Below are positions 55,929 through 57,116 of a stretch of 64,000 bases of DNA, piece after piece. Made by a program: the position numbers and the translations under genes. The notes beneath the pieces are model-generated. The model was not told where the DNA came from. It did not search any database and saw nothing but the letters and a program-made list of their open reading frames with translations. Every line of letters begins with the position of its first letter. Within the stretch, counting starts at the first letter, position 1. The DNA is from Escherichia coli (lineage in GTDB: Bacteria > Pseudomonadota > Gammaproteobacteria > Enterobacterales > Enterobacteriaceae): the NCBI RefSeq assembly GCF_003334815.1, contig NZ_QOWO01000008.1; one strand, given 5' to 3'.

Positions 55929-57116
55929 ATGAAAAGAAAAGTTCTGGCAATGCTGGTCCCGGCGTTATTAGTTGCTGGCGCAGCAAATGCGGCTGAAGTC
56001 TATAATAAAGATGGTAATAAACTGGATTTGTACGGAAAAGTAGCGGGCCTGCACTACTTCTCTGATGATGCTGGCAGCGATGGCGACATGTCATATGCCC
56101 GTATCGGTTTCAAAGGTGAAACTCAGATCGCTGACCAATTCACTGGTTATGGTCAGTGGGAATTTAACATTGGCGCAAACGGTCCTGAAAGCGACAAAGG
56201 TAATACCGCAACGCGTCTGGCATTTGCAGGTTTCGGCTTTGGTCAGAATGGTACTTTCGACTATGGTCGTAACTACGGTGTCGTATATGACGTAGAAGCT
56301 TGGACCGATATGCTGCCAGAATTTGGTGGAGATACCTATGCTGGCGCTGACAACTTCATGAACGGTCGTGCTAACAGCGTAGCAACCTATCGTAACAATG
56401 GTTTCTTTGGTCAAGTTGATGGTCTGAACTTTGCACTCCAGTATCAGGGTAACAACGAGAAAAGCGGATTATTTGATCAAGAAGGTTCAGGTAACGGTAA
56501 TGGACGTAAACTTGCTAAAGAGAACGGCGACGGTTACGGTATGTCCACTTCCTATGACTTTGACTTTGGTTTAAGTCTGGGCGCTGCTTACTCTAACTCT
56601 GACCGTACCGACAATCAGGTTCACAAAGGTACTCATAACACTCGTTATGGAGATCGCTTCGATGCAACTGCTGGCGGTGAAACAGCAGAAGCATGGACCG
56701 TTGGTGCTAAATACGACGCTAATAACGTTTACTTAGCAGCTATGTATGCTGAAACCCGTAACATGACTGGTTACGGTGATGCTGATGCCATCGCTAACAA
56801 AACCCAAAACTTTGAAGTTGTTGCTCAGTATCAGTTCGACTTTGGTCTGCGCCCGTCCATCGCTTACCTGCAATCTAAAGGTAAGGATTTAGGCGGTGTA
56901 AATAGTGATAACTTCGACAGCCAGGGTAATCATCACTACACCAACAAAGATCTGGTTAAATATGTTGATATTGGTATGACCTACTACTTCAACAAAAACA
57001 TGTCCACCTATGTTGATTACAAAATCAACCTGCTGGACAACGACGACGACTTCTACAAAGAAAACGGCATCGCTACCGATGATATCGTTGCTGTGGGCTT
57101 AGTCTACCAGTTCTAA
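55929..57116 (+). CDS. yedS: OmpC/OmpF-family outer-membrane porin YedS, apparently intact
   Basis: Uninterrupted frame: signal peptide [21 protein letters not shown], general-porin body and C-terminal VGLVYQF; track ORF starts at an upstream ATG (55899), but the ATG at 55929 gives the canonical signal peptide. Confidence 0.9.

Follow-up and report, generated by a model that had tools for sequence, protein, structure and literature searches.

The window analysed here, the whole stretch of 64,000 nucleotides of Escherichia coli contig NZ_QOWO01000008.1, contains between the genes drpB and hchA an open frame for a general porin. The earlier note on this DNA took the frame to be an intact copy of yedS, a pseudogene in K-12, and held that a functional third OmpC/OmpF-like porin changes outer-membrane permeability and is the type of locus that affects antibiotic uptake. 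This raises the questions of whether the gene is complete, which porin gene it is, how unusual an intact copy is within the species and what its product might do. The reading preferred here, with a probability of about 0.85, is that the frame is an intact allele of yedS (ompS1), the porin gene of a yedJ-drpB-porin slot conserved among enterobacteria.

Integrity, position and product of the porin gene

The features of the locus are collected in Table 1. The gene order drpB-rseX-porin-hchA is the same in E. coli K-12 MG1655, where the corresponding porin gene, yedS (b4496), carries a pseudogene annotation. Inspection of the frame from the ATG at 55929 to the TAA at 57114-57116 revealed 395 codons without an internal stop or frameshift, and none had thus been overlooked when the frame was first described as uninterrupted. 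An alternative in-frame ATG at 55899, 30 nt further 5', would give a product of 405 aa and lacks a Shine-Dalgarno sequence. The signal peptide, called by alignment with known precursors, is near-identical to that of OmpC, and its AxA site aligns with those of the OmpC, OmpN and OmpF precursors. The C-terminus reads ...VGLVYQF, with the aromatic end of the beta-signal, as the earlier reader wrote, and the other sequence features described in the earlier note were also recovered, including an AT-rich upstream region (GC 0.20 across 55700-55899) and a strong intrinsic terminator (fold of -21.5 kcal/mol, z = -7.6 against shuffles), which had been placed at 57161-57196, essentially the same position as here.

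Table 1. Features of the yedS locus (positions in the window) and porins encoded in the same slot of three other strains.
Feature	Position	Strand	Length or remarks
yedJ	54262-54957	-	flanking gene
drpB (yedR)	54997-55278	-	upstream flank defining the slot
rseX small RNA gene	55527-55616	+	Rfam RF01401, 96.7 bits, E 2e-13; same position in K-12
rseX terminator	55591-55611 plus T-run	+	rseX's own
CRP-type palindrome TGTGCGCGTGATCACA	55631-55646		just 3' of the rseX terminator
AT-rich tract, candidate H-NS nucleation region	55680-55900		GC ~20-31%; H-NS by analogy
Promoter-proximal region and 5' leader	55759-55928	+	strongly conserved
Sigma-70-like TTGTTA-16-TAAAAT	55808-55835	+	promoter scan; predicted transcript start near 55842
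Shine-Dalgarno-like AAGGGA	55916-55921	+	7 nt 5' of the 55929 ATG; read from the sequence
yedS/ompS1 coding sequence, intact	55929-57116	+	395-aa precursor, mature porin of ~374 aa
Sec signal peptide	55929-55991	+	21 residues; predicted cleavage between ANA and AEV, mature start AEVYNK
yedS intrinsic terminator	57159-57196	+	12-bp stem at 57159-57190, then TTTTTTATTT
hchA	57709-58560	+	downstream flank defining the slot
Slot porin of XJ6.2			357 aa; best PDB match OmpK35, top NCBIfam model OmpF
Slot porin of KSC207			387 aa; OmpC subfamily
Slot porin of STEC306			352 aa; top NCBIfam model OmpF

Regarding the porin family, the general-porin body noted earlier was confirmed by a full-length match to Pfam PF00267 (Porin_1) covering residues 27-395 and positions 1-337 of the 337 in the model (E 8.9e-141). 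The protein scores 540.3 bits against the NCBIfam model of the OmpC subfamily (NF007841, cut-off 484) and falls under the cut-offs of the OmpF and PhoE equivalog models. A phmmer search against PDB sequences returned end-to-end matches to OmpK37 (E 1.7e-144), OmpK36 and OmpC, with E values ranging from 1e-144 to 1e-120. The constriction motif of loop 3, LPEFGGD, is common to the alignment with OmpC, OmpN and OmpF, and residues K37, R58, R96, R147, D127 and E131 (precursor numbering) are invariant with these three proteins; the basic ladder and the acidic loop 3 residues correspond to K16, R42, R82, R132, D113 and E117 of OmpF.

The AlphaFold model of YedS has 16 strands and is of moderate confidence (pLDDT 63, pTM 0.65, shallow alignment). 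Foldseek matched it with a probability of 1.00 to both OmpK37 (6V78; TM-score 0.72 by query, 0.80 by target) and OmpC (2J1N; 0.72 and 0.81). On sequence and model evidence, the product of yedS is thus a complete OmpC-subfamily porin of the general-diffusion type, predicted to form a 16-strand barrel, and the strain would keep a reserve general porin.

Divergent porin alleles between drpB and hchA

Comparison of the drpB-hchA interval among further E. coli genomes (loci L007 2501-3574, L008 2501-3664 and L009 2501-3559) revealed at least four intact allele classes, with proteins 59-70% identical to that of the window and to one another, a divergence similar to that among OmpC, OmpF and OmpN. 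All four classes have an identical signal peptide. Their upstream DNA is 96-100% identical and their downstream DNA ~89-100% identical, and identity drops sharply within nt ~50-110 of the gene and recovers at ~57080-57380. Loop 3 reads LVEWGGD in the XJ6.2, UTI89 and STEC306 types, which resemble OmpF/OmpK35, and the window/K-12 and KSC207 types are OmpC/OmpN-like. The shares of these classes in a ranked sample of 5426 genomes, which are approximate and have overlapping class counts, are about 30% for the window/K-12 class, ~27% XJ6.2-like, ~12% STEC306-like and ~7% KSC207-like, the rest having other alleles or none; the megablast classes overlap in that XJ6.2 and STEC306 types cross-match at ~75%, and short matches at the 5' end make the identity bands too large.

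Alleles of the window class differ most at nt 481-594, 655-774, 835-861 and 982-1041, which correspond to the predicted external loops L4-L7. The E. albertii allele (94-95% identity) resembles that of the window more than the K-12 allele does, and this proximity may reflect polymorphism shared across species or recombination between species at the slot. A further step, which we propose tentatively and consider rather doubtful, would be that the drpB-hchA slot is a porin 'cassette', in which interchangeable and mostly intact genes of several porin subfamilies are placed behind one conserved promoter, leader and signal-peptide sequence. If so, recombination could maintain or exchange the classes under balancing or diversifying selection, and each lineage would have its own reserve pore and surface epitope. 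No paper describing the slot polymorphism was found in a literature search of incomplete coverage. The deep allelic polymorphism of the slot across E. coli is more interesting than the intact yedS itself.

The same observations bear on what the gene is selected for. Its main role might be that of a variable surface molecule, as a target of phages, colicins or immunity or as an adhesin, with solute diffusion secondary and the slot alleles swapped or maintained by diversifying or balancing selection. The intact classes behind an identical signal peptide, the concentration of window-class diversity in L4-L7 and the proximity to the E. albertii allele all speak for such a role, which we regard as possible, at somewhat less than even odds; it is compatible with porin function and does not conflict with it.

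Loss in K-12, prevalence of intact copies and regulation

The K-12 gene shares slot, promoter, leader and signal peptide with that of the window, and the earlier statement that it is disrupted was borne out by DNA alignment of the two, which located both lesions: codon 162 (gene nt 484-486), CAA in the window, reads TAG in K-12, and one nucleotide is deleted at alignment column 663 (~codon 221). With the amber codon and the deletion the K-12 gene would fall into three fragments, and the K-12 yedS fragments are b1964-b1966. Neither lesion is present in the window. Column identity over the gene is 93%, with the first ~445 nt and the last ~200 nt 97-100% identical, while nt ~445-870 and ~970-1010 are just 56-82% identical and contain indels; the window therefore differs from K-12 in its set of loop sequences and does not represent a K-12 gene that was 'repaired'.

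Regarding the prevalence of these lesions, of 5426 complete E. coli genomes 357 had an exact match to an 80-mer with the K-12 amber codon and 370 to an 80-mer with the frameshift. The K-12 lesions are thus confined to ~6.6% of complete E. coli genomes, most of the examples listed being laboratory strains derived from K-12. The exact window protein was detected in at least 1000 public contigs, the identical gene is present in strain SC516, and full-length relatives of 395 aa number in the hundreds in E. coli, Shigella and E. albertii, some of them named 'outer membrane protein yedS' or 'outer membrane protein S1' at source. PGAP feature names were rejected as a proxy for intactness, as pseudogenes are also labelled 'ompC: porin OmpC'. 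The intact gene is therefore nothing unusual: intactness is the common state, the loss in K-12 is a lineage-specific exception, and yedS of the window is an ordinary, already known allele and a routine annotation point.

Ten evenly spaced members of the window allele class were sampled for intactness, and eight of them are intact. The other two are strain T142A, which carries the K-12 allele, and O157:H7 strain F7349 (L091 701-1887), of which the allele is 98.8% identical to the window and has a 1-nt deletion at nt 608, resulting in a stop at aa 215. In a further O157:H7 strain, Vac_07.1 (L010), IS1203 also interrupts the porin gene, and other strains have IS1203 or IS1 insertions in yedS. The O157:H7 inactivations are independent of the K-12 lesions, and these separate losses in K-12, in O157:H7 and by IS1203 and IS1 indicate that yedS is dispensable. 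In both O157:H7 strains, F7349 and Vac_07.1, drpB is annotated as frameshifted.

The ~170 nt preceding the gene (55759-55928) share 97% identity with E. albertii and 95% with Escherichia sp. E1V33, compared with 60-70% in the neighbouring spacer, and their high identity extends across all allele classes of the slot. They are 98.8% identical to K-12, and positions -80 to +30 are identical to K-12. The conservation of this region next to a variable spacer points to selection acting on promoter and leader, and thereby to genuine, regulated expression. OmpR-box-like repeats, GAAACATTTTGAAATC and ATACATTTGTTACATGTA, lie within it at ~55781-55819. Local alignment of 55776-55850 with the upstream regions of K-12 ompC and ompF included an 11/11 match, ACATTTTGAAA, to the C1-site region of ompC, and the OmpR-box resemblance in 55776-55850 was not significant (score of 22; shuffles with a mean of 17.5 and a maximum of 27).

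YedS is reportedly subject to MicF-dependent control, as described by Warner and co-workers in 2013. Duplex prediction (RNAduplex) between the 5' 40 nt of MicF and yedS from -80 to +30 gave -11.1 kcal/mol (z +0.6), no better than shuffles, and the positive control with ompF gave -27.4 kcal/mol (z -4.1). Control by MicF, if any, would thus be indirect or act elsewhere.

Regarding other regulators, a table of in vitro Footprint-seq sites (preprint) gives the K-12 counterpart of the CRP-type palindrome (2033766) as a CRP site and assigns it to yedS; the palindrome in the window differs from that of K-12 in one spacer base. In Salmonella, ompS1 is a quiescent porin gene that H-NS/StpA represses and LeuO activates (PMC4264507). 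In E. coli K-12, H-NS/StpA silences rseX (PMC8313858), and 'yedS (ompS1)' was lowered 2.5-fold in a table of the sigma-E regulon (PMC2731931). The yedS-yedR intergenic region has also been used as a host-source marker (PMC11267920).

Alternatively, the intact gene might be functionally neutral, an unexpressed relic that has yet to acquire a lesion and has no role in permeability. The repeated independent inactivations in K-12, O157:H7 and the IS-disrupted strains, the quiescence in the laboratory of the Salmonella gene of the same name and an AT-rich upstream region typical of H-NS targets would fit such a relic; however, eight of the ten sampled alleles are intact, the promoter-proximal region is conserved to E. 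albertii next to a spacer with 60-65% identity, substitutions and indels cluster in the surface loops and spare the barrel, and mutation of ompS1 attenuates Salmonella in mice (PMC4264507). A neutral relic is therefore considered unlikely.

By analogy with these systems, YedS is most likely a reserve porin with low basal expression. Its precursor would be exported via Sec and cleaved after ANA, and the C-terminal beta-signal would allow insertion into the outer membrane by BAM and the formation of trimers, through which small hydrophilic solutes, among them beta-lactams and carbapenems, may diffuse. Under standard conditions the AT-rich promoter probably has low activity, with silencing by H-NS/StpA as the likely cause and possible inputs from OmpR, LeuO and CRP, as in Salmonella ompS1, so that YedS would matter mainly upon derepression or loss of OmpC/OmpF. 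The active YedS of a clinical isolate is said to have been tied by Warner et al. in 2013 (AAC 57:1935) to carbapenem susceptibility or resistance. According to this published account of YedS, such a porin can admit carbapenems in isolates that have lost OmpC/OmpF, and resistance can increase when it is lost or repressed. As the link to antibiotic uptake is already published, it is a known property of the gene and not a new lead.

Relation to other porins, neighbouring elements and other genera

That the frame is really ompC or ompN, not yedS, is very improbable: PGAP calls the identical gene of strain SC516 'ompC: porin OmpC', the top NCBIfam match is the OmpC subfamily model and the best solved structure is that of OmpK37, an OmpN-type porin, but the protein is merely 65% identical to OmpC and 72% identical to OmpN of K-12 (61% to OmpF), and the locus is drpB/rseX-hchA, not micF/rcsD as for ompC or uspF/micC as for ompN. 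These identities, together with synteny, rule out the PGAP label as a statement of orthology; the name is misleading, and the gene is better read as yedS/ompS1.

Regarding similarities to the named porins, OmpC shares with YedS the near-identical signal peptide, PEFGGD in loop 3 and the C-terminal LVYQF, and differs in its locus; relative to OmpC, loops L5 and L7 of YedS are longer by ~12 residues each. The group of OmpN, OmpK37 (PDB 6V78) and OmpS2 contains the closest paralog, OmpN, and has the same fold and constriction motifs, whereas the K-12 OmpN locus, uspF-ompN-micC, is unlike that of YedS. Porins adjacent to uspF form separate loci, being OmpN orthologues with 64-68% identity to YedS of the window.

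For Salmonella enterica OmpS1, which OmpR activates in addition to LeuO, the literature equates yedS with ompS1 (PMC2731931), and an AT-rich upstream region is shared. The equivalence of yedS and ompS1 would rest on this naming, on source names and on synteny in other genera. The scan for relatives covered one genome per species, and 80 loci were kept, with the Salmonella enterica slot not among them. The yedJ-(drpB)-porin arrangement was detected in Escherichia (87-98% identity) and Citrobacter (77-81%), and also in Superficieibacter, Klebsiella, Enterobacter, Kluyvera and Buttiauxella. The window allele is nearer to those of E. albertii (L013), Escherichia sp. E1V33 (L011) and E. whittamii (L012), with 94-98% protein identity, than to that of K-12 or to many further E. 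coli members of its class (87-90%).

The small RNA gene rseX lies ~310 nt 5' of yedS in the same orientation, and a permissive Rfam scan of 54900-57800 detected no RNA element besides it. Among the retrieved loci, rseX was found in five Escherichia loci only, aside from 18 matching nucleotides in Superficieibacter (L030). Its conservation relative to E. albertii and Escherichia sp. E1V33 is 87-90%, compared with 60-70% in the surrounding spacer. On the minus strand at 55546-55519, a near-consensus sigma-70-like element, ATGACA-16-TATAAT (11/12 matches), overlaps the 5' end of rseX and faces drpB.

OmpK37 was rejected as the positional orthologue of YedS, given that the porin in the yedJ-drpB slot of Klebsiella is merely 72% identical to it; the identities of OmpK37 are 76-77% to porins of the OmpN slot, 82% to a Salmonella porin (L065) and 68% to YedS, and it falls in the OmpN-slot group. 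In Klebsiella pneumoniae ATCC 13883, the yedJ-drpB slot (L032 4001-5143) encodes an OmpC-subfamily porin of 381 aa, distinct from OmpK37, with a YedS-like signal peptide, MKRKVLALMVPALLMASAANA.
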